DNA of 64,000 bases from a virus (IMGVR_UViG_3300037466_002669:174-64173); one strand, 5' to 3'. Counted from the stretch's first letter, positions 17,479 to 40,054 are shown. The notes: generated by a model from the sequence alone, not told the origin. Numbers and translations are program-made.

Positions 17479-17503
17479 AACAATATTTTAACATTGCCTA
17501 AAT

Positions 17504-21274: not shown

Positions 21275-21278
21275 TATA

Positions 21279-21314
21279 TTTAGCACGTTTCTACTAAAAT
21301 CGTTACTAATTTTG
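21279..21314 (+). promoter_or_regulatory. Late promoter 1 (terS): TTTAGC-N8-ACTAAA-N8-TAATTTTG
   Basis: Motif repeated before portal, capsid and two tail genes. Confidence 0.75.
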
Positions 21315-21319
21315 TTATA

Positions 21320-21856
21320 ATGAAATTAACTGCCAAACAGGAAAAGTTTTGCAATGAGTACTTAATTGATCTGAATGCTACACAGGCAGCAATCAGGGCC
21401 GGTTATTCACCTAAGACGGCACAGGTAATCGGAGCCGAAAACCTTACAAAACCTATTATTTCCGGATATATTCAAGAGCAACGGCACAAATCAGCCGAGA
21501 AAGCAGAAATTTCACGTGAAAAAGTCATTAACGAATATGCAAAACTTGCTTTTTTCGACATAAGAAAAATACTAACCGTCGATGGAGGATTGAAAGACAC
21601 AACAGAATGGGATGACGATAGCGCCGCCGCAATAGCCGGACTTGAAAGCTATGATGAAAAAGAACCCGATTCAGGAATGGTACTTGGAACCGTTAGGAAA
21701 ATAAAGGTCTCAGACAAACGCGCAGCCCTGGATAGTCTTTGCAAAGTCTTAGGTTATAATGCTCCCGAAAAGTCAGAAATGAAAATAAATAATTCTCCTT
21801 TCAATGATTCACAGGTAGAAAAAATTCTACATGAAATTAAACGCGCTCGCAAATAG
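21320..21856 (+). CDS. terS: Terminase small subunit
   Basis: LTAKQEKFCNEYLIDLNATQAAIRAGYSPKTA signature. Confidence 0.95.
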   Translation: MKLTAKQEKFCNEYLIDLNATQAAIRAGYSPKTAQVIGAENLTKPIISGYIQEQRHKSAEKAEISREKVINEYAKLAFFDIRKILTVDGGLKDTTEWDDDSAAAIAGLESYDEKEPDSGMVLGTVRKIKVSDKRAALDSLCKVLGYNAPEKSEMKINNSPFNDSQVEKILHEIKRARK

Positions 21857-23252
21857 TTTATTCAAAGATCTATCGGAAGAACTTCAGCATAATTTAAAAC
21901 TTTCCGGCGTTGTTCCCGTTGCTGATCCAATTATACCATTATGGGAACTTCCCGAAAAAACCAATACTGTAATTTTAATCGGTGGCCGGGGTGGAATGAA
22001 AACGTATGGCGTCTCTCAATTTATCGCTAACCAGGCAGCAGTTAATAAAAAACGGTGCGTCATTCTCCGTGACGAACATTCACTAATCAAAGAATCTATC
22101 CTATCGGAAATATTGCAGAGGTATGATGATATTCCATTTTCAACCAACACAGAAAAGTTAACCACCGGGATAAAAGATAAAGAAACGGGAACGGAATTAG
22201 TCTTTACCAAAGGCTTCAAGGCGTCGGATAATCAGAAGAAAGCCAATATGAAAGGCGTGTCGAATATAGATATCGCCGTGATTGAAGAGGCGGAAGATTT
22301 AACCGATAAAGACAAATTCAATACGTTCGTGGATTCACTCAGGAAAGAAGGGTGCCTGGTGATCGTCTTAATGAATACCCCTGATATTGGGCACTTCCTC
22401 CTTAAAAGTTATTTCTATACTAACATTCCTGCTCCTGTTCCTGTTAACATTCCAGAAAAACTTAAAGATGATTTTGACGGATATTTTGAAATTAAGCCAA
22501 AAGAAATTCCTGGCTTCGTTTGCATTCACACCGGATTTGAAGATAACAAATTTTTACCCCAAAATATAGTCGACCGTTATAAATCTTATGGCGATCCGGA
22601 TTCACATACTTACAATCCTCACTATTATATGACCGCTGTTAAAGGTTATGCGAGCACCGGAAGAAAAGGACAAGTATTAAGGAAGGTAAAAGAAATCTCA
22701 CTCAAAGATTACCTTGCCCTACCGTTCAAAGAATATTACGGCCAGGACTTCGGAACTGCTTCGCCGGCTGGATTGGTAGGAGTTAAATTTGACAAGAATA
22801 ATTGCTATGCGAGGGAGATTAATTACCTTCCTATGAATACGATCGCAATCGGGAAATTATATTGTACACTCAATTTCGGACTGAATGATAAAGTTATAGC
22901 CGATTCAGCAGATAAAGATGCGTGTGATAAACTCGCCGCTGGTTACCAAGCTAAAGAATTAAGCCAGGAGGATTTAATGAACTTTCCTAAGCTATTAAGG
23001 GGCTTCTTTGTGGAGAAATGTGTTAAAGGTGAAGGATCAATAAGGGCCGGGATCTCCACCATGGATGGGCTTAACTTATTTGCGGTAAAAGAATCTGAAA
23101 ACCTATGGAATGAAATCAGAAATTATACTTACGATGTTGATAAGAATGGTAATCTAACTAATGATCCTATTGATGCCTTCAACCATCTTATTGACCCCTG
23201 GAGATACGTATGCACCGATCAGCGCGGCAAACGCGAAATGTTTGGTATATAA
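21831..23252 (+). CDS. terL: Terminase large subunit (PBSX-like)
   Basis: GGRGGMKT Walker A, IEEAE Walker B, GQDFG and NHLIDPWRY nuclease motifs. Confidence 0.93.
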   Translation: MKLNALANSLFKDLSEELQHNLKLSGVVPVADPIIPLWELPEKTNTVILIGGRGGMKTYGVSQFIANQAAVNKKRCVILRDEHSLIKESILSEILQRYDDIPFSTNTEKLTTGIKDKETGTELVFTKGFKASDNQKKANMKGVSNIDIAVIEEAEDLTDKDKFNTFVDSLRKEGCLVIVLMNTPDIGHFLLKSYFYTNIPAPVPVNIPEKLKDDFDGYFEIKPKEIPGFVCIHTGFEDNKFLPQNIVDRYKSYGDPDSHTYNPHYYMTAVKGYASTGRKGQVLRKVKEISLKDYLALPFKEYYGQDFGTASPAGLVGVKFDKNNCYAREINYLPMNTIAIGKLYCTLNFGLNDKVIADSADKDACDKLAAGYQAKELSQEDLMNFPKLLRGFFVEKCVKGEGSIRAGISTMDGLNLFAVKESENLWNEIRNYTYDVDKNGNLTNDPIDAFNHLIDPWRYVCTDQRGKREMFGI

Positions 23253-23260
23253 CTAAAATA

Positions 23261-23297
23261 TTTAGCCATTTATTGCTAAAATTCTTACTTAGTTTTG
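23261..23297 (+). promoter_or_regulatory. Late promoter 2 (portal): TTTAGC-N8-GCTAAA-N9-TAGTTTTG
   Basis: Direct reading. Confidence 0.75.
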
Positions 23298-23301
23298 ATT
23301 T

Positions 23302-25026
23302 ATGATCTATACAGATGATCAAATCGCGGCAATAATCAAACTAAATCCTCAAAAAAAGCTGGTGGCTGATGCAAGGGCGCAAGCCGATAAATTAATGATG
23401 CTCATTCATGGGCACAATATAGCTTCAGCACTTTCACGTGATCTTTATTTTGAAAATGACGACATATTTAAATCCAGGAATAGTAAGGCGATGTCAAATA
23501 AAGACTTGTTCGCCAGATTATTTCAAAGGGAGCAAATGGTTTTCACCGCACAGGGAGGAGCTTCTTACTTCACAGGAATAACTGACGCCCAAGTGAAGCA
23601 GCTGAACGAAATATTAGATAGTATTCGTTTTTCCATGTCAATAAGAAGATGGATAGAGCATTTTGCTTTACCAGCTTTCAGGTGTGACCCTATGGGAGTT
23701 ATCTTTATTGAATCAGATGATGACAGTTCTTATCCGACTTACAAATGTAGTTCTACTGTTTACGATTATCTTCCGAATGGGAGAAAATTAGAGTATATTT
23801 CATTTCAACTGACTAAAGCTGAATGCGATCTGTTTAAAGTAGAGGATGAAAAGCTAAAAGACCAACAACCAGACTTTAAAACTAATTACTACCGGTTTGT
23901 AGATGACGTGAGAGATGTAATTGTGAGATATGAAAATTCAGTGGTTACAGAAGTTGATCGGTTAACACACGGATGGCAACAAACACCTGCCTTTATCATT
24001 TCTGATATTATTTCTTTTGAAAATACACAAAAATTTCTTTCACCAATTCATACAGTTGTTGAACTGGCTGATAGCTTTCTTAATGACCGTTCAATCCGGG
24101 ATCTGCAGAAGAAATATCACGGATTCTTAAAGGCTATTGAACCATTATTACAGTGTGGCATTTGTCAAGGAACCGGATTCTTATCAGGAGCAGCTTGTCC
24201 GGAGTGCACTCCAATTGGAGCTGACAAAGGAACGGGCTATAAATTAAGAACAAAGGTTGCCGATGTTGCCCGCTTCCCTATTAAGACCGGATCAGGGGAA
24301 AATTTTGATTTTAATAAATATTTTGGTTACGTAAAACTTCCGATTGAGGTGTGGGATAAACAAGATGCCTCTTTACAGGACATTGAAAATCTAATCACTG
24401 ATGTTTATTGGGGAACTGAAAAAAGACAGCAAACCAACGGGCCTAAGGTGGGTGATAAATCGGTAGAAGAAACGGCAACAAAAACACTTTCTAACTTACA
24501 ACCAATATACGCCAGGCTTAACGCAACCGCTGATTGGGCTGAAAAGACAGAAAATATAATCGCTGATTTTATAGGAAAGAAAGAATTTACTACATTCAAG
24601 AAGGCACAAATTTCCTATGGAAGATATTATATTCTTGAGACACCAGCGGAATTGATGGATGAATATCTTAAGTTAAAAAAAGAAGGCGCCTCGCAGTCGT
24701 CCTTATTTGCGGCACTCAAAAGATATTTACATTCAGCGTATGAAGCAGATCCTTCCATGCTCGCTGTAGAACTTAAGATGATCAATGTAGAACCGTTCAT
24801 TCATTATACTGTAAGCGAAGTGCTTGCAAACAATCCCGCAAAGATTGATTACTACTGTAAACTTTATTTTTCAGAATGGCGGCAATTGCAGGACTTTAAT
24901 TACCTGTTGGCAACCAAAGAAGACGTTTTAAGGCAGTCTCTCATTGAATATGCAACAGCAAAAATGGCGTTAGATCCAACCGAAGCCGTTGAAGCTGTTG
25001 GGGTAACAGAAAAAGTAAAAAATTAA
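23302..25026 (+). CDS. Portal protein with internal DnaJ-like zinc-finger motif
   Basis: Position after terL, 574 aa; CGICQGTG...CPEC...KGTG. Confidence 0.75.
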   Translation: MIYTDDQIAAIIKLNPQKKLVADARAQADKLMMLIHGHNIASALSRDLYFENDDIFKSRNSKAMSNKDLFARLFQREQMVFTAQGGASYFTGITDAQVKQLNEILDSIRFSMSIRRWIEHFALPAFRCDPMGVIFIESDDDSSYPTYKCSSTVYDYLPNGRKLEYISFQLTKAECDLFKVEDEKLKDQQPDFKTNYYRFVDDVRDVIVRYENSVVTEVDRLTHGWQQTPAFIISDIISFENTQKFLSPIHTVVELADSFLNDRSIRDLQKKYHGFLKAIEPLLQCGICQGTGFLSGAACPECTPIGADKGTGYKLRTKVADVARFPIKTGSGENFDFNKYFGYVKLPIEVWDKQDASLQDIENLITDVYWGTEKRQQTNGPKVGDKSVEETATKTLSNLQPIYARLNATADWAEKTENIIADFIGKKEFTTFKKAQISYGRYYILETPAELMDEYLKLKKEGASQSSLFAALKRYLHSAYEADPSMLAVELKMINVEPFIHYTVSEVLANNPAKIDYYCKLYFSEWRQLQDFNYLLATKEDVLRQSLIEYATAKMALDPTEAVEAVGVTEKVKN

Positions 25027-25031
25027 ATATT

Positions 25032-25397
25032 ATGGCAGATAAAAAAACAGAAATTAAAAAACTACCAAATGACAATTTGGATTTATCAAACTTTGATTAT
25101 GATAACCTAACAGGTGAATCATTTGAAAAATATCAGGAATTAGTAAACAGTCTTCCAGGGCACGAAAACAGAGACTTTGTGCAGTACATGGCCAGCGGCG
25201 TGTTTAAAACAATTTTGAATGATAACGCCGATAAAGAGGTGGTATTAGTGGGGATTAAGATAAACAACATTAAACCGGTAAACGTTACAAGAGTTCCCGT
25301 AAATGTTGCCCGTAATCTCAATGCGCAGATTATGGATAGAAACAACCCGTCTTCCAACAGCCGGTATTTTTTACTTAAAAAACCTTCCAATGCTTAA
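25032..25397 (+). CDS. Hypothetical head-module protein
   Basis: 121-aa ORF. Confidence 0.65.
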   Translation: MADKKTEIKKLPNDNLDLSNFDYDNLTGESFEKYQELVNSLPGHENRDFVQYMASGVFKTILNDNADKEVVLVGIKINNIKPVNVTRVPVNVARNLNAQIMDRNNPSSNSRYFLLKKPSNA

Positions 25398-26211
25398 AAA
25401 AGAAACAGCCGAAAAAATTAAATCATTTGGCTTTGATGTTGATAAACTTATAGCCGCAATCAAAGATGAAGCAGAAGTAGATTACCCATTACCGGAAATA
25501 CAGGTATTTTCCGCTGCCGATCTTGCTTCCAGAGATGTCAACACGAAATCCGAAGGTGAAAAAGAGGGCTTCAAAAAAGGTAAAGAAGCTGGAATAATTG
25601 TAGCCGGCAAAGCACTTGCAAAGAAATTTAATCTCCCGGAAACTGTTGACGTAAAAGAGCCGGATAAGGTTGCAGAAGCAATCAGCACGACCGTAAGTAA
25701 AGGTGATGCCGGCCTGCAGGAGCAAATAAAACTCCTTCAAAAAGATAAAGAAACTTTACAAAGTGAGGTTGAAAATACCAAGAAAGAAAAAGAAGCCCTG
25801 GCGTTTGACACTTCTTTAATCTCTTATTTTCCTCCAAATCGGGATGCTTCTTTGGAAGATTCCGAAAGGTTAATGCTGGTTAAACATGCGCTTCAGTTTG
25901 AAGTTGTTGACGGCAAACAAGTGGTGAAAAAGAATGGTGAAATATTAAGAAATCCAACCACAAAAGACCCGCTGCCGGTGAAGGACGCGATCAGCACTTT
26001 ATTCACTGAAAGAAAATGGGTAGCGGAATCAGGTGGTGGTAGAGGCGGCCAAGATAACCCGGGTAAAAGCGCAGGCGGATTAAAGAAATTCAGCGATGTA
26101 CAGGCCCAATGGCAAAAAGATAATCCAAACTTAAATCCGATATCCCCTGAATTCACTGCTTATGTAGGTGGCATCGCAAAAGAAACAACAGATTTTGACT
26201 GGAATAATTAA
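25390..26211 (+). CDS. Capsid scaffolding protein (likely start MLKKET)
   Basis: Charged coiled coil with GGGRGG linker, upstream of capsid gene. Confidence 0.65.
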   Translation: MLKKETAEKIKSFGFDVDKLIAAIKDEAEVDYPLPEIQVFSAADLASRDVNTKSEGEKEGFKKGKEAGIIVAGKALAKKFNLPETVDVKEPDKVAEAISTTVSKGDAGLQEQIKLLQKDKETLQSEVENTKKEKEALAFDTSLISYFPPNRDASLEDSERLMLVKHALQFEVVDGKQVVKKNGEILRNPTTKDPLPVKDAISTLFTERKWVAESGGGRGGQDNPGKSAGGLKKFSDVQAQWQKDNPNLNPISPEFTAYVGGIAKETTDFDWNN

Positions 26212-26214
26212 GTT

Positions 26215-26508
26215 ATGGGGAAAGCATCTAAATTAAAGCAAATCAGAAAGGCCCCAAAAGGCTTGCCTGCACTAGAAAGAAAAACAGTTGTAGGGATTAA
26301 CGTAACCGGAGCCGAATTAATCAAAGGAGGCGTGATAACAGTTAAAGAAAAAGAAGTAGATGAAAAAGAAATGTACCACGCAAAACGAACGGTTCGTCTT
26401 CCCGTAAACCATGCACGTTCAATGAAAAAACTGTATAATAAATACGACACCAAAGGAGTTAATGGCTATATTAATGCTGTAAACGATTTTGCGGGTAAAA
26501 TAAAATAG
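26215..26508 (+). CDS. Basic hypothetical protein
   Basis: 97-aa ORF. Confidence 0.6.
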   Translation: MGKASKLKQIRKAPKGLPALERKTVVGINVTGAELIKGGVITVKEKEVDEKEMYHAKRTVRLPVNHARSMKKLYNKYDTKGVNGYINAVNDFAGKIK

Positions 26509-26537
26509 TTTTCTTGTATCTCATAAGCGATCAATCA

Positions 26538-26560
26538 CCCTTGTTTCTACAGGGGTTTTT
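26538..26560 (+). terminator. Intrinsic terminator
   Basis: cccttgt-ttct-acagggg-ttttt. Confidence 0.7.
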
Positions 26561-26572
26561 ATTGCTACAATA

Positions 26573-26608
26573 TTTAGCTAAATAATACTAAATACTTTAC
26601 TACTTTTG
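26573..26608 (+). promoter_or_regulatory. Late promoter 3 (capsid): TTTAGC-N8-ACTAAA-N8-TACTTTTG
   Basis: Direct reading. Confidence 0.75.
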
Positions 26609-26702
26609 TTCCGTTGGTTGTACCAATCTAAAGGCTGTGCCTATTTTCTCCGAGCAGTGCTCAAACTCCAAACTCTTTCTCAAAAATTAAAATATACCAA
26701 AA

Positions 26703-27773
26703 ATGGCAGATTATGCAGCATCGGTATTGGCTAAAGGTCAAACCGTAGTAACCGCAAAATACCAGACACCGGAGCAGCGCAGGAAAATTCCGACTGTAAT
26801 GGAGCTTGCAATCAAAAATCAAAAAATCTCTATCCCGAATGCGCAGGATTTGAGAGTTTCCCCTTTGCGCACAGTTGATGTAAACTTTTTAACGAATATC
26901 GCAGCCGGGTCAGCAACCGCAAAAGTCGCCGCTCATACAGGTACTTATGGCGATTCCGCTAAGATCAATGTTGTTTACGTAACACACGTAGAAACAATGA
27001 GCTTGCCACGTAAGTTAGCTTACAACAACATCAATTCATACCAGGACTTGTTTAACAACCTGTTTGAAATGAAGTGGAAGAACCTTCGCACCCGCCAGGA
27101 CACTTCCGCTTTGGCTTTCCTTTTGGCTAACCGCTGCCAGTTGGATGCAGCCGTTATTAACCCACAGATTGCACCTGCCGGTTTCTCTGACACCTCCGCA
27201 ATTGGTTCGTGGGATAACACAAATTTTGCCGGATTGATTAAGGTGGCCGAAAAAGCCAGATTTATTCAATGGGCAAAAGCATTCATGGCAGCACGGCACT
27301 TTACCGGCGCCTATGATATTGTAGCCGATCTTCAAATGGCTGCTCAGTTTGAATACCAATTGAACCAGGGCCAGGGTAATGCAGCTAATACTTCGTTCCA
27401 GTTTGGGGATGCAGGAATAGCCACTACCCAGGATTCAGTTTCTTCTTTCTATCCACAAGGTTCTGCACTTGTGATGCCACAGGGCACACTTGCAGGTTTG
27501 GTTTGGAACGAAGGGTTAAACAAAGCTGGTGTAAATGCAGGTCAAAACAGCGTAGGTAATTTGGGAACCGTTGCCGATCCATTAGGGTCTGGTGCAATTG
27601 CTGATCTCTCAATGTACACAGCAAGGGCAGATACCAGTGCCAACACTACTGGTGGTTCTACTCAGGATATTGTGGATCAGTGGGAGCTTTCATTAACTAT
27701 AGGTTATGTAACTCCACCTCTCAGTGTAGCAAGTGATTCAGTAATTCATTTATTTGGACAATCAGCAACCTAA
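26703..27773 (+). CDS. Major capsid protein
   Basis: 356 aa, follows scaffold, own promoter; synteny-based. Confidence 0.7.
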   Translation: MADYAASVLAKGQTVVTAKYQTPEQRRKIPTVMELAIKNQKISIPNAQDLRVSPLRTVDVNFLTNIAAGSATAKVAAHTGTYGDSAKINVVYVTHVETMSLPRKLAYNNINSYQDLFNNLFEMKWKNLRTRQDTSALAFLLANRCQLDAAVINPQIAPAGFSDTSAIGSWDNTNFAGLIKVAEKARFIQWAKAFMAARHFTGAYDIVADLQMAAQFEYQLNQGQGNAANTSFQFGDAGIATTQDSVSSFYPQGSALVMPQGTLAGLVWNEGLNKAGVNAGQNSVGNLGTVADPLGSGAIADLSMYTARADTSANTTGGSTQDIVDQWELSLTIGYVTPPLSVASDSVIHLFGQSAT

Positions 27774-28915
27774 TGAACCCCGTGTATAGTAACGGTTTTG
27801 AAATTCAATCAGTTCTTAGTTCTTTGACAAAAAGATTAGGATGGAGGCAGCCGACACTTGCCGGCTCGCCCGTCCTGAATGCAGATAATAAAATGTCAGT
27901 TTCAGGCAGGTACTTTCAAAGTTTTCACTCACTGGTAACAATTGCAAAAATTAAAGACGTTTGCGAAGATAAAGATATAAGTGATGCTGACTTTAATACT
28001 TACCTGACTAATCTTCAGCAGGATGCCATAATGAGGTGCCTTAATGAAGTTTTCAGGGAGCCGGAACTAATAGAACAAAAACTATTATATACACGGTTTG
28101 CGACAATGGACCAGCCGGTAGGTAATTCAGGACTTTTTACAGGGTACATCATTAACGTGGCAAATGACTTTGGAATTTCTACTCAGATTAGTTCAGCTAC
28201 TCTTTATTTTGACCAGGATTGCTCCTTTAACCTTTATTTGTTTCAGGACGGCGTCAAAGCTCCTTTACAGACAATACCGGTTTCATGTGTAGCTTTTCAA
28301 AGAACGGTAAAAGAGTTTGATAACCTTGTACTCAATTTCAAGACAGGCCAAAAGTATTATTTCGGTTATTTTCAATCAGAACTTGGAGCGGCACGGGCCA
28401 TAAGAGAACAGGTTGAAACTTGGGCAACTACCCGCTGTTTTGAGGCTTTTGTTTTCCAGGCACCAGCTATAGATAATAATACCGATTTTGATCACAATCT
28501 CAGACAATACGGTTTTCTTCCTTACGGGTTAAATCTTGAGATGATCTCCTTTAAAGATCATACCCAAAAGATTTTAAGGAAAGCAAACCTCTTCGATGAA
28601 GTAGTAGGATTACAGGTAGCAGCGATGGTAATTGAAGAAATAGTAATGACCACCCGCACCAATAAGGACGAAAGGCAAATCGGGGAGATAGCCGGTAAGA
28701 TTTATGCCGAACTTAATCAGGCTTACGCAACGGAAACGGTTCCTATCATGCCGGGTTTAAAAAGTCGCATAGCAGGTGAATTAAAAAGGTTGAGATCAAC
28801 GTTCTTTCCGGAACAAAAGCCCATGTCAATCAGTATGGAGGCTGACAGTTTAGGAATAGAATCGAGCTGGTACAAACAAAATTATCGTCAACTTACTAAC
28901 CCGCCAATACAATGA
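27773..28915 (+). CDS. Head completion/structural protein
   Basis: Synteny. Confidence 0.5.
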   Translation: MNPVYSNGFEIQSVLSSLTKRLGWRQPTLAGSPVLNADNKMSVSGRYFQSFHSLVTIAKIKDVCEDKDISDADFNTYLTNLQQDAIMRCLNEVFREPELIEQKLLYTRFATMDQPVGNSGLFTGYIINVANDFGISTQISSATLYFDQDCSFNLYLFQDGVKAPLQTIPVSCVAFQRTVKEFDNLVLNFKTGQKYYFGYFQSELGAARAIREQVETWATTRCFEAFVFQAPAIDNNTDFDHNLRQYGFLPYGLNLEMISFKDHTQKILRKANLFDEVVGLQVAAMVIEEIVMTTRTNKDERQIGEIAGKIYAELNQAYATETVPIMPGLKSRIAGELKRLRSTFFPEQKPMSISMEADSLGIESSWYKQNYRQLTNPPIQ

Positions 28916-29466
28916 GTTTGATAATTAAAAATAACCCGGTTGGTATTGACGAAAGGATAGATATTTTACAGAAAGGATTATTTAGTTCTTTGATTAAAAA
29001 ATGGAATCTGGCAGAAAGTAAATACAACTGCTATCCAAGATGTTACCGCAATCAGACAGTTGACGGATATACCGCCGAAATGTTTACCGGCGGTACAGAC
29101 TACGAAGAACTCTATATAAATGATCAGGTTAGTATAACCAGTTTCTTTGGAATAGGACAAAATTCAAGAATTCAGGCTGATCAAGTGCAGGCAGATATTC
29201 ATTTGATCTTCTCGCTGAATTTAAATGAAATAAAGCCCGGAATTCAAAGAAACGACGAGGAAGCAAGATTAGATGTGCTGAGAGTGTTGGACACCTTCGG
29301 AGCGGCACATGGATTTTTATTACAATCACAAACAACAGGAATTGATAAGATACTCGCGGAATATCCAGGATCAAGAAAAACAATAGGACTTAAATATACG
29401 GATATGCACCCTAATCTTTGGTTCAGATTTGATCTTCAAGTTTTTTATCAACCCACTTTATGTTAA
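28912..29466 (+). CDS. Putative tail terminator/neck protein
   Basis: Synteny, size. Confidence 0.45.
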   Translation: MSLIIKNNPVGIDERIDILQKGLFSSLIKKWNLAESKYNCYPRCYRNQTVDGYTAEMFTGGTDYEELYINDQVSITSFFGIGQNSRIQADQVQADIHLIFSLNLNEIKPGIQRNDEEARLDVLRVLDTFGAAHGFLLQSQTTGIDKILAEYPGSRKTIGLKYTDMHPNLWFRFDLQVFYQPTLC

Positions 29467-29485
29467 CATTTAAAAATTAAAAACA

Positions 29486-30618: not shown

Positions 30619-30624
30619 AATAAG

Positions 30625-30646
30625 GCCGGGTAACACCGGCTTTTTT
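30625..30646 (+). terminator. Intrinsic terminator
   Basis: gccgg-gtaaca-ccggc-tttttt. Confidence 0.75.
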
Positions 30647-30649
30647 ATT

Positions 30650-31108
30650 ATGCTTGACTTGAAAAATTTAGAAACGATTATGAAAGGGCTTTCGTCCTTT
30701 AATGCGCATGATGAAGTAGAGCGAATTGTGGATGATAACCATGATGTAATAGTACAGCTGGAGCGCGATCAATTAAGCGAAGGAATCGATAGAGATGGCA
30801 ACGAAAGAAAAGACCATTACGCTCCCTTTACGGTAAAGATGAAAGAAATGTACGGCAAAGGACTTGGAGCCGTAACAGACCATGTAACATTCTATATGAC
30901 GGGCACGATGTATGAAAGTTTATTCTACAAGTCAGAAGGAGATGAATTTACGGTTACTTCACCGCTGGAGACTTACGATAAAATGATAGAGAGAATTGGT
31001 GAAGATGAATACGGGTTAAGCCCTGAAAAAAGACTTTATTTTGCTGAAGAGAAAGTACTCCCAAAATTTGCTGAAATATTCAAAGAAAAAACCACTTTTT
31101 TACTTTAA
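30650..31108 (+). CDS. Virion morphogenesis/tail completion-like protein
   Basis: YAPFTVKMK...TFYMTGTMYES resembles morphogenesis-family motif. Confidence 0.5.
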   Translation: MLDLKNLETIMKGLSSFNAHDEVERIVDDNHDVIVQLERDQLSEGIDRDGNERKDHYAPFTVKMKEMYGKGLGAVTDHVTFYMTGTMYESLFYKSEGDEFTVTSPLETYDKMIERIGEDEYGLSPEKRLYFAEEKVLPKFAEIFKEKTTFLL

Positions 31109-31170
31109 ATAAATTACTTTTATGATGATTATTTAAGAAGAAAAAACTTTATAAAATCAACAACTGAAAA

Positions 31171-31350
31171 ATGTCAAACAAATGCGATTGCGGTTTTAAT
31201 GGAGTTATTTTCGTAAGTAGGTATCTTGTAAAAAAGTATGGCGTGGAAGAGGCTATAAGAAAATCTATTGTAAGACGAAATTCAAAATATAAGAGTTTCA
31301 AGATAACCCTTGCCGATCCGTCTGTTTTTAATCAAGAAATAAAACTATAA
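31171..31350 (+). CDS. 59-aa hypothetical protein (not in ORF track)
   Basis: MSNKCDCGFNGVIFVSRYLVKKYG...; TAA overlaps next ATG. Confidence 0.6.
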   Translation: MSNKCDCGFNGVIFVSRYLVKKYGVEEAIRKSIVRRNSKYKSFKITLADPSVFNQEIKL

Positions 31351-31913
31351 TGGAATTACAAGATATTACAGTACGGGTTTTTATGAGATGCCTTTTCAAT
31401 AAGGATTATACAGGCGTGGATAATTGGGATGAACTCTATACAAAATATATTGATCTTTCCGGATTAGGAGAACAAGGGCAATTAAGTATCCATGTAGCAA
31501 TACATAATCTAAATGTGAGACTTTTCAGAATTACGGCTTTTCTTGAACTACATTCAAAAGTATTTGGTCTAATAGGGATGCCACACCTGGAAAAGATGGA
31601 TGACATGGCAGAATACGGACATAAACTAACTTGGGATCCTGACGAACCGGAAAAGTTTTTATCTCAACTGATCAGGATTGAGCAAAAGGAAAAAAGAAAT
31701 TACGTGGAGTTAAAGGAAATGGAAAAAGAACTGGAAGAAATGAAACAGGCAGAAGATCCAAAGACCGTAAGCGCCCGTAATTCATTTGTGATCATGCTTA
31801 ACGTACTCGGAAAAGAAGGTTATAAGATCGACAAGGATAAAACTGATATGGAGGAATTAAGCCTCATGATTAAACAACACAGCGACGACATTGCCGCACT
31901 AAACCAAAACTGA
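31350..31913 (+). CDS. Putative tail assembly chaperone
   Basis: Immediately upstream of tape measure gene. Confidence 0.45.
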   Translation: MELQDITVRVFMRCLFNKDYTGVDNWDELYTKYIDLSGLGEQGQLSIHVAIHNLNVRLFRITAFLELHSKVFGLIGMPHLEKMDDMAEYGHKLTWDPDEPEKFLSQLIRIEQKEKRNYVELKEMEKELEEMKQAEDPKTVSARNSFVIMLNVLGKEGYKIDKDKTDMEELSLMIKQHSDDIAALNQN

Positions 31914-34900
31914 TGGCGCAAAATATTGTTGATGTATCCTGGGATTTAGCCAAGTTTGACGAACAAACACAAGCTGTCCTGGCAAACATGACCAAAGTAT
32001 ATGATCTGGCAAACCAGGCAAAAGCTACAGGTATTAAACTTGGCAGCGATGGTGGTTTTACTGAACTTAAAAAAAACGTCACCGATTTCAATAAGGTACA
32101 GGAACAAAGTTTAAAGTTAACGGCTTTGCAAGAAAAAGCCGAGCAGGCCCGGATAAAAACACAAAAAGATGCAGCACTGGCAGCCAAAGCAAGGGATGCC
32201 GCCGAACAGCAACGTTTAAAAACTCAGTCGGCTCAACTTGACCTAACTAAAAAACAAACCGCTGCTGATGAGAAGGCCGCCGCCGCAAAAAAATCTGTAA
32301 ATGATATTTCGCTTATAATCCGCAATAAGGGTGACGATCCTGCCTCGGCAGAAACTACCGCTGCTTTTGAAGCTCAAAGACGTGCAGAAGCGGACGCCTC
32401 AATGGCCGCGATAGAGTACGGCAATAGTGTTAATAAATCCACCACAGCATTAAAAGAGCGTGAGGTTGTTTCTAAACAAACCAGTGCTGAAAGTATCCGT
32501 GATAAAGAAATTCAAAAACAACTTGAAAGGCAAGCGGCGCAAGAATTAAAAAACAATGTGCGCGAACAAATAGCCGCTAAGGGTTCACTCGAACAAAGGA
32601 GGGCCGCGTTAATTAGATTGAACGCTGTTTATGATCACTTGAATGCAAGCGAAAGAAATTCGCCTTATGGAGCAAGATTGCAAAAAACTATTGCAGGGGT
32701 GACTACGCAGGTAAAGGAATTGGAAGCCGCCACAGGACGAGCACAAAGAAATGTCGGTAATTACCCGAATGCATTAGAAAAGTTTGGAACTAGGGTAGAA
32801 TCTGTTTTCAGGAGACTTGCGGCCTATGTTTCTATTTTTGCAGTTTTTAATTTTTTCAAGACAGTTGTTGGTGACACATTAGAAGCAGAAAATGCATTGG
32901 TGCGTTTTAAGGCGACACTTGACAATTTAGGGAGGTCTGATGTTTTTGGCAGATTGGATTCCAAAGCGGAACAATTTACAGACCGGTTTAAATATTTGAA
33001 AAAAGAAGATGTTTTAGGCGTATTTGAGCTATTAATTAACTACGGAAAATTAACCGAAAATCAAATCACTGCTTTAATTCCTGTTATAACCAATTTCGCT
33101 GCAAAACAAAGAATCTCAATAGTTGAGGCTACACCAATTATTATTAAAGCACTTGCCGGACAGGGACGCGGATTAAAACAGTATGGAATAGATGTAAAAG
33201 ATGCTCATTCAGTTACAGAAAGGCTTGGGATGATCATGGATGATTTGGGGCCAAAAGTCGAAGGAGCTGCCGATGCATTCGGAAAAACAACACAAGGTAA
33301 AATCGCACAGACAAAAGAAGATTTTGTAAAGCTAAAAGAAGAAATTGGTAATGGATTACTTCCAACTATAAATAAATTATTAGCGGGGTTTGATAATTTA
33401 ATCAATCGCTTCCGTAATATGCACAGTGATATTGATTTGAATACAAGTGCATTTGGAAGAATGTGGGAAAAGATTCAAAACCTATTGCCGTCAAGAGGAA
33501 CCGACAGCAACGGACAAACATTACAGGAGCATTTAGATTCTGAAATGGCTCGCAAATTTGGCGGTCATCAGGTTGCTAATCCTGGCAATGGTGTTAATAC
33601 GTTTATATTACCAGATGATCTGAATCCAAATGGGAATAAAATTTTAGGCACGGGAGGAAGAGATCGGGATAAAACAAAAAAAGAACACAAGGCCGTTGTT
33701 TTAGAATCTGTGAAAAACGAGCTTGATCTTGAATTTGAGCTTTACAAAATTTCGCAACAGCATAAAATTAAATTACTTGATGAAGAGCAAAACGATACAA
33801 AAAAATCATTGGCAGAAAGAATGCTAGCTGCTGAAGATTTTACTAAAGCATCTATTGAACTTTCCGATAAAACTTATCAGCATGAAATAGCTAATGATAA
33901 GGAGAAATTAAAAATAATGGAAATTAATTTTAAGAGACTGAAAAAAGGAACTGAAAAAAATAATCTTGCTGTTGAAATAGAAAATACCGGAAAGGAAATT
34001 AAAGTTGCTCAGGCAAAACAAAATGATGAAAGACTTGCATTACAAGAAGCATTTGGTAAGAAATACCTTGAAATAGCTAAAGATACAGAAGCAGAAAGAT
34101 TAAGGATTTTAGAAAAAGCAGAAAAAGCGATTGAAAACGTACGTATAGAGCAGCATAATGCCATAGAAGCTAACAGGGCCTCAGAAAAAGCAGCACATGA
34201 TAATCTATTGCACGATAAAATAATCAGCCAGGAAAAGTATGATAAGTTAGAAAAAAAATCTATTAAGGAAAACGCTATCCTCCAAGCGCAATCTGATTTA
34301 CAGAAAGCACAAAGGATGAAAGATCTTGTTTTCACAAATTCGCGTTCTACCACTGAAGATAAAAATAACGCAGTTAATAATGTTACTACCGCTAATGCTA
34401 ATTTAATCAGTGCACAAAATACAGATGATAAAACTGATAAAGGACTTGAAAAAAGGCAAGAAATAGTAAAAGATGCACAATTGATCACTCAAACTATTGA
34501 TAGTTTGGTGGACATTGGATATCAAAAAGAAATTAACGCTATTCAGAAAATAATCGATCTTAACGAAGAGAGGAAAAACAGAGAAATTGCCAATATTAAT
34601 GCCTCGACTTTAAGCAACCAGGAGAAAGCGGCGCAAATGCTCCTTTTAGATAATACAGTCGCCGCAAATAACAAAAAATTAAAAAGAGAACAAGTTGCCG
34701 TCCAAATTAAACAGGCAAAGTTTGACCGTGATATGGCTGTTTTAGGCATTCTTGAAAATGTTGCTACTGCTAACTTCAAATTGATTGCACAAGGTGGTTT
34801 TGCTGGTATTGCCGCAGGTGTCGCAGTTGGATTACAAGCGGTATCGGCAATTGCTATGTTAATGGCCAAGCCTCTTCCTCAGATGCCGGCGTACGCCAAA

Positions 34901-35290
34901 GGAACTGATAACCACCCTGGTGGACCTGCAATAGTTGGTGAAGGGCAATATAAAGAACTTGTAACAGAGCCTGGAGGAAAATCTTTTATAGCCTCGCGGC
35001 CAATGTTATTAAACAATCTTCCGAAAGGTTCAAAAGTTACACCTTTAACTAATGAAATGATCATGGCAAGCATGACGCAAAGCGCAAATGCATCAATGGC
35101 AGAAAGAATGGTAGCAAGCAATAGTATTCAGGCAGAAGGAAACCGCGTAGAACTTACCGCAATCAAAGAGGCGGTTTATGAAACCGGACGAATGACTGCA
35201 CAGGCATTAAGAAAACAAAAAGGTGCAAACGTTGTGGTAAACGTTGATTCAAAATTTTATGCTCACATTATGAAAGTTGTGAAAGAGTGA
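31913..35290 (+). CDS. Tail tape measure protein
   Basis: 1125 aa, Ala/Lys/Glu coiled coil, hydrophobic patches, YAKGT...VGE C-terminal motif. Confidence 0.88.
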   Translation: MAQNIVDVSWDLAKFDEQTQAVLANMTKVYDLANQAKATGIKLGSDGGFTELKKNVTDFNKVQEQSLKLTALQEKAEQARIKTQKDAALAAKARDAAEQQRLKTQSAQLDLTKKQTAADEKAAAAKKSVNDISLIIRNKGDDPASAETTAAFEAQRRAEADASMAAIEYGNSVNKSTTALKEREVVSKQTSAESIRDKEIQKQLERQAAQELKNNVREQIAAKGSLEQRRAALIRLNAVYDHLNASERNSPYGARLQKTIAGVTTQVKELEAATGRAQRNVGNYPNALEKFGTRVESVFRRLAAYVSIFAVFNFFKTVVGDTLEAENALVRFKATLDNLGRSDVFGRLDSKAEQFTDRFKYLKKEDVLGVFELLINYGKLTENQITALIPVITNFAAKQRISIVEATPIIIKALAGQGRGLKQYGIDVKDAHSVTERLGMIMDDLGPKVEGAADAFGKTTQGKIAQTKEDFVKLKEEIGNGLLPTINKLLAGFDNLINRFRNMHSDIDLNTSAFGRMWEKIQNLLPSRGTDSNGQTLQEHLDSEMARKFGGHQVANPGNGVNTFILPDDLNPNGNKILGTGGRDRDKTKKEHKAVVLESVKNELDLEFELYKISQQHKIKLLDEEQNDTKKSLAERMLAAEDFTKASIELSDKTYQHEIANDKEKLKIMEINFKRLKKGTEKNNLAVEIENTGKEIKVAQAKQNDERLALQEAFGKKYLEIAKDTEAERLRILEKAEKAIENVRIEQHNAIEANRASEKAAHDNLLHDKIISQEKYDKLEKKSIKENAILQAQSDLQKAQRMKDLVFTNSRSTTEDKNNAVNNVTTANANLISAQNTDDKTDKGLEKRQEIVKDAQLITQTIDSLVDIGYQKEINAIQKIIDLNEERKNREIANINASTLSNQEKAAQMLLLDNTVAANNKKLKREQVAVQIKQAKFDRDMAVLGILENVATANFKLIAQGGFAGIAAGVAVGLQAVSAIAMLMAKPLPQMPAYAKGTDNHPGGPAIVGEGQYKELVTEPGGKSFIASRPMLLNNLPKGSKVTPLTNEMIMASMTQSANASMAERMVASNSIQAEGNRVELTAIKEAVYETGRMTAQALRKQKGANVVVNVDSKFYAHIMKVVKE

Positions 35291-35303
35291 TTATATTTGG
35301 TGT

Positions 35304-35834
35304 ATGAGAATAATAATAATAGTGTTGATTGCGCTATTTAATACCGCCTTCGCACAATTACCGGTTGATCCTGCAACACATTTAATAACCTTTACCGGTG
35401 TAATACAGGCCAATGGAACACAGGCCGAGCTTTATTCCCGTGCGAGAGAATGGTTTGCTAAGACTTATAATTCTGCTACCGATGTAATAAAAATGGACGA
35501 TAAAGATAAAATTGTAGGAAAGGCGAATATGATTGCTTATTATAAAAATTATCATTTCGGGAATATATTTTATCAGGTTTCAGTCTATTTAAAAGACGGG
35601 AAGTTTAAATATGAGATCACTGATTTTTACCATAAAGGCGAATTTGTAAACACCGGATATTCTTATACTCAAACACCGGATTTAGGACATTGCGAAGATT
35701 TGATGAATTCATCAAAAAAAAGAGATCAAAAAATATTTGAAGCCTTTTCTAAACAAATTAATGATGAAATTGAGCCGTTAATTTCCAGCCTCAAAGAAGC
35801 AATGAATAATCAGGTTGCCACCAAAGACTTTTAA
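35304..35834 (+). CDS. Secreted DUF4468-like protein (moron)
   Basis: Signal peptide with Gln+1; ELYSRAREWFAKTYNSATDVIKMDDKD...IVGKA; own TATATTTG promoter at 35292-35299. Confidence 0.65.
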   Translation: MRIIIIVLIALFNTAFAQLPVDPATHLITFTGVIQANGTQAELYSRAREWFAKTYNSATDVIKMDDKDKIVGKANMIAYYKNYHFGNIFYQVSVYLKDGKFKYEITDFYHKGEFVNTGYSYTQTPDLGHCEDLMNSSKKRDQKIFEAFSKQINDEIEPLISSLKEAMNNQVATKDF

Positions 35835-35842
35835 CTAAAAAT

Positions 35843-35879
35843 ATTAGCCTTCTATCCCAAAACCTTTAGTTTAATTTTG
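35843..35879 (+). promoter_or_regulatory. Late promoter 4: ATTAGC-N8-CCAAAA-N9-TAATTTTG
   Basis: Degenerate copy of the motif. Confidence 0.6.
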
Positions 35880-35884
35880 GAGGA

Positions 35885-38800
35885 ATGTTACCGTATAAAA
35901 CATTCCTTTACTTTCTATTGGATACTCCAACAGGTAAAGTATATTACCGTGATAATGGCACTTTAAAGATTCAGATAATTACTGCTGATTCTGACGTTTC
36001 TCTTAAAAACGCTCCTTTAAACTGGCTCGATACAGAATTATCTTTTGCCCGTAATTCGACTTACCACGGGATAAACAGATCTTATTCTACCCCACAGGAA
36101 TTTGTAAAGGATGCCGTAGTAATGATCAAAGAACTGTTCTTATTAGGCGTAGGTACAGAAGTTCCTTTAACGCTGGCTGTATTTAAATATAATTCACAAC
36201 CGCTCACCGGCGAACCTCAATACAAACTTTATTTTAAAGCCAATCTTGACCTTCCGGAAATAAACGAAACGGTACTGGAAACTCTCACGGTGAATTTAAT
36301 GGAGGGCGGCGTAACACAATTACTAAAGTCTTACGAAGGAACCACCTTACAAATTCCTTGCGATGGCTCAATTCAGGAAAATCAAAAAGTAAATTTGGAC
36401 GGCCTTTTAGTACCGGATGTATTTTACTACCAGACTGTTCCCCTGAAAGATTTAACCGAAGTAAAACCACTATGGATTTCAATTTCTCCACTTCCTCTCA
36501 CTTTCGTTAATAACGAAGGCGATAATTATGGCATTATTCACAACGATCAGACCTTAGAAGTGATTACCTATGACGGCTCTATTGATCCTAACCAGATAAT
36601 TACTTATTCCGCAACTTCTCCTAATTATCTTTTCTTGTCTGTAAGTAAGATCACTCTTTCAATAAAAGGATCACTTCCGTTAAGATATAATAACCCGGCT
36701 CAGGTTCAATTATTTCTTTCGACAAGCCAGGGGCAACTTATTCCCGTATCAGATAATTATTTTTCAGACAGTCACAGAATAATAACTTTTTCTATTGATA
36801 CGCAAATCACACTTGATGAAAACGAGGCGTTATTTTTATTTATTCAGATCAGAAACCCGTCTGGAGACATAACCCTTTCAAGAAATTTAATTGATGTTTT
36901 GAATGGCTCTTTTTCTCTTTCTTTTGTTTCCCAGGCTAAACCAACGCGCGCATGGGCCATAAGTGCTGCAGATCTCTTCAAATTAATGGTGAAAGAAATC
37001 TGTTTACTCGCCTCTACAACTAATCAGACTTTTAATTATTCAGCAGTAAGCAGTCTTTTAGCGGCGAACCTGAATATAATGTTTACTTCAGGGGATGCTC
37101 TCAGGGCTTCAGGGGATAGTTCTTATCAGAGGTTCTTTTCTTTAACTCAAAATAATAATATTCTTCAAACTTCATTCGGGCCGGTTATTAAGCTGACTTT
37201 AAAAGATTTCTACCAGGCAATAGAAACAATTCTGGTGGCTGAATTGAACGCAGGCCATAACGGTGTAACTGAAACGCTGGAAATTGAAGATTTAGAATCG
37301 ATTTATGATAGCAGTGTAGTTGATTTTTCTATTGGCGAAATGGCTTCTTTAAAATGGAATTTTGCGAAAGATTTGGCCTTTTCAGATTTAGAAATAGGTT
37401 ATCCACCGCAAACTTACGACCAGAAAGCCGGGAAGTATGAGTACAATACTACTCTTGAAATGAAGGCTCCAATTAATTCGTTTTCAAAGAAACTTTCTAA
37501 AATCTCAAAGATAAGGTTTGATTCTTACGGCATAGAGAGGCTTCGCTCGAATGTAGGAGCCCCGACTTCGACCACTCGGAACGATTCAGATAACGGCGTA
37601 TTCGGATTAAACGTTGATCTTAACCAAACTATTTTTGATTATTACAGTGCTGGGTTTACATCTCAGATTCCCGATCCAGGCAATCCGTTAAACACGAATA
37701 TTAACTTTCAGCAAAATGTAAGCTGTCAGCAAATACCAGCAACTTCTTTTGATGGAGAATACTTCCAGCCCAATACGGATAACGCCATTGTCATGTTTAG
37801 CGTGCCGGGATATATTGTTAATGAAACCTGCAATCTTACTGTTAGCGGGCTGATCAATTCAGTAAATAAGCCCCCACTAGCCCCGGACGATAGCTTTACA
37901 CTTAAATTGTGGCATAATGGGCAAGTAATCTATACTTATACCGTGGGAGTTTCGGGGGTGAATACGCCTATCTCTATTAATTACGACTTCACTCAGTTTT
38001 TCGCTTATAAGGACTGGGTCTATATTACGATGGAAACCACCGCTACCGGTGAAGCCACCATTAACACAGCTTCACTTAATATCGGTACTTACATAATAAT
38101 GAACGCGGCAAATATCCCGGTACTTTCAGGAAGTTTCAAATTACTTTCATGGCTTTCTTTTAGCCCGGATTCCAAACCGTATGTAGAAACCTCTCACGTC
38201 CAGTATGGATTCCAGTATTTTGTCTTTAACTCGCTCGTTCCCAATACAAACTTTTTACTTCAGTCTTTCTTTAATTCATGGATTTCTAACCAGGTTGCGG
38301 ATTTTTCGGTTGATTGTCATATAAACGATTTAGTTCAAAGTTCAGTTGTTACTGGCTCTGTTGATGGATTGCCGTTGGTAAATAGTATCAGTCTACCTCG
38401 CGATTATGCTTTAAATGATATTGTATTTTTTTCTGCAAATGTTTTAGGCAGCGTTTTAAACGTTTCCATGACAAGCCTGGACGTCACTTTCTACTCCACT
38501 CAAATAAAGTGCTATTCCTTAAAAAGAGTGCAGTATGATTCACTTTCAGGTGTTCCAAATATTGCTAAAAATGACGCAGGAGAAATAAGAACAGATATTT
38601 CGGGTGCTCCCTATAATATTGAGGACTTAACGCCAAAGACTTTATACAGAAAATGGAGGAATTATATTATGTCCACCTTTATGGATCAGGTAACAGGATT
38701 AATGAAGTTTCAAACGTTGAGTAAAAACTCTTACCTCTCAAGATCTATTAACGGCGAAGTGATCACAGAAAATTCCGATGAACAGGTACTGGGATTTAAA

Positions 38801-40003
38801 CGGCTGTTTTATCCGATCGAACTACAGGTAAAAGCGAACGTTCCCTTAGGATTCGCAGAACTGATGAACAAAACGAAAAACGCTCATATTCACGGCACAT
38901 TTATGGGAACGGATATTTATTTCTTTGCGGATTCCCTTAATCAGAAAGCAGCCTTAAATGAATCGCAGACCTGGAAAGCAATCCTTTCTCCCAAAACAGA
39001 TTTAACAGCTTTTGCACGAATAACATCTTTTAAAATTCCCGCTATGGAAGACAATCAAATATCGTATGCCTTTTCTAACGCAATTCAGTTAGTGCCCTAT
39101 AACCAAACCTTACCGGATAAATACCACACAAGAAACCGTGATACGTTCTTATTTAAAGACCAGATAGGCAATTGGGTAAATCAGGATGATTATGGCCAAC
39201 CAGTTCAAATCGGCGATCCGTTGCCGTTCCAGTTTATTACGAACGGACTAAGTAACATTACTTACACGGTTTATAATTGTGACGGCATTTACTTAGGCCC
39301 AACGGCTTTGGATGTAGCTATTTCACCTGCTGTAAGTGATCCTTATGCATTGTGGCAAAAAATTATTGATACAACAGGATGGGCGCGCGATAATTATTAC
39401 ATCGTGATCAGCGCTGCCGGTTCGCCTGTTTATAGAAGTGAGCCGTTATGGTTAAGGAATAAGATTGAACTGGAAGGCAGCGTACTACTGGAAGCCACCA
39501 ACACCTTTAATACACAAGGAATTGTATTTGATGCGGGATTTGTGATCTCGATGCGTTTCAAAGGTGGTTATGATAATAAATTCAAACAAAAGTACTTGGG
39601 CAAATTCTACATAGATCAACCCCAAGACATTACCGTTCTTAACGCGATTCCGTATGAAACGAGCACCCTTTTAATCGGCCGCGATGGTGGAGTTCCGGAT
39701 TACGTTCCTAAGAAGATTTTAAGAATGCTATTGATGGACGGATGTATGTTGGACGGCGAAGGGTTCTCTTTAAATGACGGCGCAGAACTGGAAGAGGTCT
39801 TTACCAAAGGTGCACCAAAGAAATTCCAAAAAGTAGAAATCAGACCATCCAAGAATAAGCCCGGAATTAGCACACTTCCTTCCGGTGTGTCTTCGGATGA
39901 TAGTAGTATGATTGTAACAGTTAATCCGCAATCTTTTGGCCCGAACGTAACTAATTCAAGTGGTACGACTGAAACAGATTTAATAAGTATTATAGTAGAA
40001 TAA
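35885..40003 (+). CDS. Large tail tip/structural protein
   Basis: 1372 aa, beta-rich, downstream of tape measure gene. Confidence 0.75.
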   Translation: MLPYKTFLYFLLDTPTGKVYYRDNGTLKIQIITADSDVSLKNAPLNWLDTELSFARNSTYHGINRSYSTPQEFVKDAVVMIKELFLLGVGTEVPLTLAVFKYNSQPLTGEPQYKLYFKANLDLPEINETVLETLTVNLMEGGVTQLLKSYEGTTLQIPCDGSIQENQKVNLDGLLVPDVFYYQTVPLKDLTEVKPLWISISPLPLTFVNNEGDNYGIIHNDQTLEVITYDGSIDPNQIITYSATSPNYLFLSVSKITLSIKGSLPLRYNNPAQVQLFLSTSQGQLIPVSDNYFSDSHRIITFSIDTQITLDENEALFLFIQIRNPSGDITLSRNLIDVLNGSFSLSFVSQAKPTRAWAISAADLFKLMVKEICLLASTTNQTFNYSAVSSLLAANLNIMFTSGDALRASGDSSYQRFFSLTQNNNILQTSFGPVIKLTLKDFYQAIETILVAELNAGHNGVTETLEIEDLESIYDSSVVDFSIGEMASLKWNFAKDLAFSDLEIGYPPQTYDQKAGKYEYNTTLEMKAPINSFSKKLSKISKIRFDSYGIERLRSNVGAPTSTTRNDSDNGVFGLNVDLNQTIFDYYSAGFTSQIPDPGNPLNTNINFQQNVSCQQIPATSFDGEYFQPNTDNAIVMFSVPGYIVNETCNLTVSGLINSVNKPPLAPDDSFTLKLWHNGQVIYTYTVGVSGVNTPISINYDFTQFFAYKDWVYITMETTATGEATINTASLNIGTYIIMNAANIPVLSGSFKLLSWLSFSPDSKPYVETSHVQYGFQYFVFNSLVPNTNFLLQSFFNSWISNQVADFSVDCHINDLVQSSVVTGSVDGLPLVNSISLPRDYALNDIVFFSANVLGSVLNVSMTSLDVTFYSTQIKCYSLKRVQYDSLSGVPNIAKNDAGEIRTDISGAPYNIEDLTPKTLYRKWRNYIMSTFMDQVTGLMKFQTLSKNSYLSRSINGEVITENSDEQVLGFKRLFYPIELQVKANVPLGFAELMNKTKNAHIHGTFMGTDIYFFADSLNQKAALNESQTWKAILSPKTDLTAFARITSFKIPAMEDNQISYAFSNAIQLVPYNQTLPDKYHTRNRDTFLFKDQIGNWVNQDDYGQPVQIGDPLPFQFITNGLSNITYTVYNCDGIYLGPTALDVAISPAVSDPYALWQKIIDTTGWARDNYYIVISAAGSPVYRSEPLWLRNKIELEGSVLLEATNTFNTQGIVFDAGFVISMRFKGGYDNKFKQKYLGKFYIDQPQDITVLNAIPYETSTLLIGRDGGVPDYVPKKILRMLLMDGCMLDGEGFSLNDGAELEEVFTKGAPKKFQKVEIRPSKNKPGISTLPSGVSSDDSSMIVTVNPQSFGPNVTNSSGTTETDLISIIVE

Positions 40004-40013
40004 TACTATAATT

Positions 40014-40050
40014 TTTAGCCATAAATTACTAAAGGCTTTGGGTAATTTTG
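40014..40050 (+). promoter_or_regulatory. Late promoter 5: TTTAGC-N8-ACTAAA-N9-TAATTTTG
   Basis: Direct reading. Confidence 0.75.
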
Positions 40051-40054
40051 TTTA

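Follow-up and report, generated by a model that had tools for sequence, protein, structure and literature searches.

The 64,000-nt IMG/VR virus record IMGVR_UViG_3300037466_002669:174-64173, read here as one strand and called the window, contains a temperate, siphovirus-like phage with a long rightward late operon. Five genes of this operon are preceded by a shared promoter cassette, in which two 13-bp boxes of the type CTAA-N5-TTAG stand in tandem upstream of a host-type -7 element. The same palindrome is a published operator of the non-canonical LexA of Bacteroidetes. We lean, by a modest degree, towards reading the cassettes as SOS-gated late promoters that are held by a host LexA-like repressor, with a small phage protein of the XRE family as a possible partner. 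Since the promoters of the virion genes carry LexA-type operator pairs, particle production is probably wired to the SOS response of the host and not simply switched on by a phage activator, as had been proposed at first.

Tandem boxes at five late promoters

The first-pass annotation described a palindrome, TTTAGC-N8-RCTAAA, placed 8-9 bp upstream of the host -7 element at five late-gene starts, and this arrangement is borne out. The palindrome occurs exactly on the + strand at 21279, 23261, 26573 and 40014, where 0.07 matches are expected from shuffles and no shuffle reached 5. The copy at 23261 is fully symmetric and therefore also matches on the - strand. A degenerate fifth copy, ATTAGC-N8-CCAAAA, is found at 35843, and a relative (L066) keeps the identical degenerate form. 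Together the five copies occupy the only sizeable intergenic gaps of the late operon. An exact TAnnTTTG follows each of them 8 or 9 bp downstream, at 21307, 23290, 26601, 35872 and 40043. A -33 TTTG is missing at 17-21 bp upstream of the -7 box in all five cassettes, as had been noted, whereas promoters of non-cassette relatives at the equivalent gene junctions, where present, are the canonical TTTG-N19-TAnnTTTG. The proposed association of the elements with promoters is upheld, and the elements are under selection.

Relatives were gathered by a related-locus search and by pattern scans, and the closest portal homologues (P0002-P0008, 87-72% identity) stand outside the comparison. Besides the window phage (lineage W), cassettes were found in two further lineages, B (L012, L065 and L100, together with L066 and L069) and C (L102 and L078). 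Pattern scans of IMG/VR beyond lineages B and C returned only single, apparently chance matches. The proteins of lineage B are 74-96% identical to those of the window phage. In lineage C the large terminase (terL) is 73% identical, the portal protein only 32% and the head gene 30%. An XRE homologue is encoded before the small terminase gene (terS) in all three lineages (80%, 77% and 55% by BLAST), with the recognition helix KRYAKWEEGR unchanged throughout. Both the XRE homologue and the cassettes are missing from about 45 other portal relatives, among them L011, which equals lineage C in the closeness of its terL. The portal cassette is kept in L012 and L100, and also in L102, where it precedes a portal gene of only 32% identity. 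L102 has a counterpart of the head-module cassette at position 8360 of the reverse complement, and L066 keeps the cassettes of the 1372-aa and the 454-aa genes described below. The cassettes mark boundaries of module exchange. A comparison of L012 (1800-1910) with L100 shows terS of L012 swapped for an unrelated 117-aa terS; the cassette remains with the XRE gene, and its ATG opens only a 3-codon open reading frame (ORF).

Thirteen cassettes were aligned across the lineages. The alignment contains four half-sites, which read CTAAA, an A/T-only triplet, TTTAG, ten variable bases, CTAAA, three bases, and TTTAc abutting the -7 box; no further conserved motif was seen in it beyond the boxes and the -7 box. 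The 20-bp dyad that had been taken as the functional unit is the inner pair of these half-sites. The alternative parse gives two 13-bp palindromes, CTAA-N5-TTAG and CTAA-N5-TTAc, centred at about -42/-43 (O1) and about -19/-20 (O2). They are 23 bp apart in five places and 22 bp apart in one. Between the window phage and lineage B, an approximately 80% relative, none of 64 dyad positions has changed, whereas 16 of the 79 positions in spacers and between boxes have (Fisher p = 6e-5). All of these substitutions lie outside the 4-bp dyads; among the bases hit are the final C of TTTAGC and the initial A of ATTAGC. The A/T spacers drift, but no G or C of a dyad varies. Because of this substitution pattern, two 13-bp boxes are preferred over the 20-bp dyad, which is variable at its sixth and first positions, whereas the half-sites on either side never vary in their outer CTA. 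Exact CTAA-N5-TTAG occurs five times in the window (17934, 17957, 21271, 23253 and 35835), always within a cassette or a tandem pair. Boxes with one mismatch are those at 26565 and 40006 and all O2 boxes of the five promoter cassettes. Counted over both strands, the tandem pattern matches 12 times, which corresponds to 5 tandem sites and 2 overlapping hits; the expectation is 0.47, and 0 of 100 shuffles reach 12.

All five cassettes are on the + strand. The terS cassette (21271..21319, ATG 21320) has an exact O1 at 21271-21283 (CTAATATATTTAG), an O2 with one mismatch (TTAC) at 21294-21306, and the -7 box at 21307-21314. The portal cassette (23253..23301, ATG 23302) is comprised of an exact O1 at 23253-23265, O2 at 23276-23288 and the -7 box at 23290-23297. 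The head-module cassette (26537..26702, ATG 26703) begins with a terminator-like hairpin at 26537-26556, followed by O1 at 26565-26577 (CTAC, one mismatch), O2 at 26588-26600 and the -7 box at 26601-26608. The cassette of the 1372-aa gene (35835..35884, ATG 35885) has an exact O1 at 35835-35847 (CTAAAAATATTAG), O2 at 35857-35869 (CCAA, in 22-bp phasing) and the -7 box at 35872-35879. The last, that of the 454-aa gene (40006..40054, ATG 40055), contains O1 at 40006-40018 (CTAT, one mismatch), O2 at 40029-40041 (TTGG) and the -7 box at 40043-40050. PHROGs back the names terS, portal and terL (21831, + strand). The gene at 26703 that had been called capsid encodes a 356-aa virion structural protein (phrog_7231). 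No family supports the earlier names for the 1372-aa tail-region gene (large tail gene) and the 454-aa gene (collar), and a Pfam search of the late genes downstream of the cassettes gave zero matches.

In Flavobacterium johnsoniae the -7 box spans T-12 to G-5, with the transcription start 4-5 nt further on; the -33 element is weak there, AT-rich motifs are present near -18 and -28, and 87% of mRNAs have leaders of more than 10 nt (PMC6847099). The distance from the -7 box to the ATG is 4-5 nt in four of the five cassettes. Because the F. johnsoniae start lies 4-5 nt after the box, the starts predicted with its numbering fall on or beside the ATG: at the A of the ATG for portal and the 454-aa gene, and at that A or one base before it for terS and the 1372-aa gene. 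By these predicted starts, four of the five late mRNAs would be leaderless. The fifth copy, at 26573, is separated from its ATG by a 95-nt leader. Two more exact TAnnTTTG boxes without SOS boxes stand 4 nt before an ATG, at 19635-19646 (gene 19647) and 35292-35303 (gene 35304), and leaderless starts seem to be a general habit of the window phage. The cassettes resemble the sigma-A(Bfr) promoters of Bacteroidota (-33 TTTG / -7 TAnnTTTG; PMC6847099 and references therein) in their exact -7 box and in a predicted start distance that fits the 4-5 nt rule, but differ in the lack of a -33 TTTG and in a predicted start that coincides with the ATG. A sigma-70-type promoter scan was also tried and is uninformative for Bacteroidota.

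The LexA-like operator and the XRE protein

CTAA-N5-TTAG is one of two operators of a non-canonical Bacteroidetes LexA that is comprised of a PF01381 helix-turn-helix (HTH) domain and an S24 autopeptidase (Sanchez-Osuna et al., 2021; PMC8565304; statements on this regulator refer to parts of that paper and of its supplement). The LexA-like protein of Pontibacter actiniarum binds this operator in electrophoretic mobility shift assays (EMSA), where changes to the dyad or to the spacer length abolish binding and substitutions within the spacer are tolerated (PMC8565304). Large CTAA-N5-TTAG regulons are found in the Hymenobacteraceae, Sphingobacteriaceae and Chitinophagaceae, with many promoters that carry two or more boxes (PMC8565304).

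The boxes of the window have the same 13-bp palindrome with its CTAA/TTAG dyads, fixed 5-bp spacer and A/T-rich spacer sequence. Comparison with the published boxes (Table S5 of PMC8565304) yields three identical 13-mers. That at 21271, CTAATATATTTAG, is the SOS box of Niastella imuA and Pedobacter dinB; that at 35835, CTAAAAATATTAG, is the SOS box of Mucilaginibacter recQ and imuA and of Marivirga; and that at 17934, CTAATAATGTTAG, is the SOS box of Mucilaginibacter umuD. In the same table, paired boxes exactly 23 bp apart belong to Niastella recA, umuD and the lexA-like gene and to the Pedobacter lexA-like gene, and the spacing of the cassette boxes equals this published pairing of bacterial SOS promoters. 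The published regulon differs from that of the phage in its content, as it is made up of repair, mutagenesis and lexA-like genes, and the parts of PMC8565304 referred to here name no phage virion-gene promoter as regulated. A metagenome-assembled genome of Mucilaginibacter carries a portal homologue (52%), which would be in keeping with hosts of this kind, and Sphingobacteriaceae use CTAA-N5-TTAG (PMC8565304).

The strongest box site in the genome is a tandem pair at 17934..17969 on the + strand, in which two perfect CTAA-N5-TTAG boxes stand 23 bp apart between a 110-aa gene (17504-17836) and attP/int (integrase, 18452-19615). The site GTTAGC-N8-CCTAAA at 17942, which had been listed as related to the cassettes, is real, but no -7 box follows it: TAnnTTTG is missing after the pair on either strand, and TAATAAAA occupies the -7 position. 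This pair may be a decayed cassette, a repressor sink, or a control site of a downstream small ORF or RNA candidate.

XRE is a 74-aa HTH_3 protein encoded upstream of terS (21050..21274, + strand) and the sole HTH_3 protein of the phage. Peptidase_S24 (PF00717) has no match in the whole 64-kb record; an S24 repressor is present in four of the six complete relatives without boxes. The LexA-like protein of P. actiniarum was retrieved through 77 residues of its C-terminal domain taken from the supplement of PMC8565304. XRE aligns to residues 2-69 of this protein, its N-terminal DNA-binding domain, without gaps over 68 residues (32% identity, 57% positives, E = 2e-12), a score that thousands of HTH_3 proteins attain comparably. 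The match is better than that to the N-terminal domain of P22 C2. None of the matches examined is a longer, fused XRE relative with S24. XRE is probably a domain-only relative of the LexA-like repressor.

Upstream of the XRE gene are two boxes with one mismatch each on the + strand, at 20993-21005 (TTAA-N5-TTAG) and 21024-21036 (CTAT-N5-TTAG), and the proximal box, CTAT-N5-TTAG, is kept in lineages W, B and C. The first-pass annotation had placed a dyad, ATTAGC-N8-TCTAAT, over the XRE start at 21032 and suggested that XRE may repress its own gene. A related site before XRE is present in all three lineages, but the dyad itself falls below the weight-matrix cut-off and its right arm is not conserved; only the left 13-bp unit persists, and autorepression through this dyad is not sustained. 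A second regulator candidate, the 51-aa ribbon-helix-helix (RHH) protein at 20801..20956 (+ strand, weak match), was rejected as a likely partner of the cassettes, since it is absent from L012, which retains them. In phage C (L102, about 2170-2240 of the reverse complement) TTAC-N5-GTAA (TTACTCTTAGTAA) stands upstream of the XRE homologue beside the conserved CTAT-N5-TTAG box. TTAC-N5-GTAA is a variant operator shown by EMSA for an Elizabethkingia LexA-like paralogue (PMC8565304). Just upstream, phage C has a second HTH_3 gene, of 66 aa.

Proposed SOS gating and its alternatives

In the reading that we favour, the promoter core is of the host sigma-A type, with an exact TAnnTTTG and no -33 TTTG, and is overlaid by the tandem operators O1 and O2. 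LexA-like dimers bound at both operators would cover the promoter in a lysogen or soon after the phage enters the cell. O2 lies directly against the -7 box, in a repressor position, and a dimer there would block RNA polymerase. DNA damage would lead to self-cleavage of the repressor and free the five late promoters, of which four are predicted to start mRNA at the AUG or one base before it. The XRE gene opens the late region and has weaker boxes of its own in front. Its product would work at these promoters too, most plausibly as an activator of class II type that sits on O1, in the manner of gp6 at promoter P3 of phage GIL01. Such activation from O1 would account for the lack of a -33 element and also for the joint occurrence of XRE and cassettes. 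The identity of the boxes with published operators, their 23-bp phasing, the selection on the dyads and the joint occurrence with XRE are seen in the sequences; which protein binds, and the sign of its effect, we infer.

Several points weigh against this reading. Repression by the host alone gives no reason for the cassettes to travel with the XRE gene, and late promoters under direct SOS control would skip the usual early-to-late order if no delay came from an activator or from template titration. Nearly every O2 has one mismatch. The recognition helix is ELKRYAKWE in XRE and KRSLVGAYE in LexA-like proteins; since these differ and many HTH_3 proteins score similarly, XRE need not share the specificity of the LexA-like protein. 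Portal and terL profile scans detected no prophage relatives in GTDB representative genomes, and we only infer that the phage's own host has a LexA of the CTAA group. A fuller form of the SOS-gated reading, in which the non-canonical LexA of the host gates all virion promoters and a domain-only copy of its DNA-binding fold turns the same operators into activator sites after cleavage, is put forward as a tentative and rather doubtful proposal.

An activator acting alone is somewhat unlikely. Here an XRE dimer would bind the boxes and, from O1 at -42 (class II), activate the five late promoters that lack a -33 element; the host LexA-like protein would be uninvolved, and the identity with SOS boxes would reflect the common descent of HTH_3 repressors. 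The presence of XRE and cassettes together in W, B and C, and the absence of both from the other relatives including L011, speak for it, but this co-occurrence rests on only three related lineages. The cassettes of phage C stand before portal and head genes of only about 30% identity and hence go with the XRE-terS-terL module. The relatives' junctions have TTTG-N19-TAnnTTTG, and the cassettes have no TTTG at that spacing; the -33 element is, however, weak in F. johnsoniae promoters anyway. The XRE gene lies just upstream of terS, like genes of RinA/ArpU-type late activators (PMC3753634), and the centre of O1 at about -42 matches the sites of Mu C (-43.5; PMC2582627) and GIL01 gp6 (-43.5). Yet an activator at O1 would give no reason to conserve a second box at -19 that abuts the -7 box, and three identical 13-mers together with the 23-bp phasing shared with SOS operators would be coincidence. 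The first interpretation is kept in part: XRE co-occurs with the elements in every lineage that has them and in none of the about 45 other relatives, but because the box is a published LexA-like operator, repression linked to the host is no less likely than activation by the phage.

It is quite unlikely that XRE is instead the phage's own repressor of the cassettes, one that cannot be cleaved and that would imitate LexA, keeping the virion promoters silent until it is removed or outcompeted. Positions -42 and -19 are classic for operators, XRE resembles the N-terminal domains of P22 C2 and of the LexA-like protein, and a box precedes its own gene. Against these, the XRE gene runs into terS without a terminator (in phage C the TGA is directly followed by the ATG, with no gap), so XRE would be co-transcribed with the terminase, which is odd for a maintenance repressor, and it has no evident route of inactivation.

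Least probable are cassettes without a specific regulator, whether constitutive strong promoters or recombination linkers conserved through AT-rich promoter context or junction homology, or sources of an RNA hairpin: the AT-rich motifs of F. johnsoniae promoters and the position of the cassettes at module boundaries, flanking swapped genes in phage C, fit such a reading, but the dyad G and C are invariant while the A/T spacers drift, the half-site spacing is not in helical phase, and the folds of the five cassettes are mutually inconsistent and no better than those of shuffles (z -1.2 to +1.2), with the tail copy (35843) unable to form a stem.

Genome context and known circuits

The last 6.8 kb of the record (57238-64000) duplicate 6447-13210 at 99.9% identity, which leaves a unique unit of about 51 kb, and 51259-57237 is a mosaic variant of the module at 1-6446. 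The record has the look of an end-to-end assembly, either of two sister genomes or of a concatemer. Between a leftward early promoter (-7 box 17438, - strand) and the rightward 110-aa gene stands an inverted repeat, AAAGAGATA-N15-TATCTCTTT, at 17440-17503. It is a likely operator of the phage's own immunity switch and is not related to the SOS boxes. In the tail region, a strong terminator-like hairpin at 30622-30643 stops 6 nt before the ATG of a gene at 30650, with no recognisable promoter between them. The segment downstream of this hairpin (30650-35290) includes a 1125-aa gene.

A relative at 45% identity, L013 (a 45.4-kb IMG/VR record, G001), carries another palindrome of the 4-N5-4 format, GTAATTA-N3-TAATTAC with the core AATT-N5-AATT, at 9796, 9936, 9954 and 14644. 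These copies adjoin -7-like boxes at junctions orthologous to those of the cassettes: one where terL ends, two ahead of portal and one ahead of the head gene. L013 encodes a CI with HTH and S24 domains. Its palindrome was considered as the operator of its own CI/Cro region and rejected, since that intergenic region uses other repeats (TACAAAGTA). No HTH protein was found next to terS of L013.

Phage promoters with host LexA boxes are a known design, and so are late activators that work through dyads. At the late promoter P3 of GIL01, a Bacillus thuringiensis phage, tandem LexA boxes repress, and gp6, a truncated LexA homologue, activates from a site at -43.5 (PMC6182141). The window phage resembles this circuit of host LexA, gp7 and gp6 (PMC6182141, PMC4551915) in being a temperate phage without a dedicated self-cleaving repressor, in having tandem boxes, here LexA-like, within late promoters, in encoding before its late genes a small protein that is a putative domain-only relative of the SOS repressor, and in the activator-type position near -43. 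It differs in its phylum and in the LexA concerned, which is non-homologous (HTH_3 plus S24 as against winged-helix LexA). It has five dispersed late promoters in place of one, and its -42 site is the SOS box O1 itself, whereas GIL01 has a distinct gp6 palindrome. Its late mRNAs are predicted to be leaderless, no gp7-like corepressor was identified in it, and it also has an integrase and a separate immunity-like region. Its circuit, unlike that of GIL01, is a prediction from sequence.

Similarly, Mu C (PMC2582627), P1 Lpa (PMC10695390) and the RinA/ArpU superfamily upstream of terS (PMC3152322, PMC3753634) provide cases in which, as in the window phage, several late promoters share one dyad, with a good downstream element but no upstream hexamer, a regulator gene beside terS and a site near -43. 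The regulator candidate of the window phage is of a different type (HTH_3), a second site is present at -19, and the site equals the operator of a host repressor.

Our literature searches on late-promoter control in Bacteroidota phages found nothing. If the SOS-gated reading is correct, it would be the first link, as far as these searches show, between the non-canonical LexA SOS system of Bacteroidota, described only in 2021 (PMC8565304), and phage particle production in this phylum. A temperate phage with no self-cleaving repressor would thereby have a concrete route of induction. The cassettes may also be of practical use as natural, compact (about 45 bp), probably damage-inducible and leaderless promoters for genetics in Sphingobacteriia or Chitinophagia. 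If the fuller form with XRE holds as well, the window phage would have re-invented the GIL01 circuit convergently on a non-homologous LexA and combined it with leaderless late mRNAs. A second case of the GIL01 logic, independent of the first, would point to a solution that recurs.

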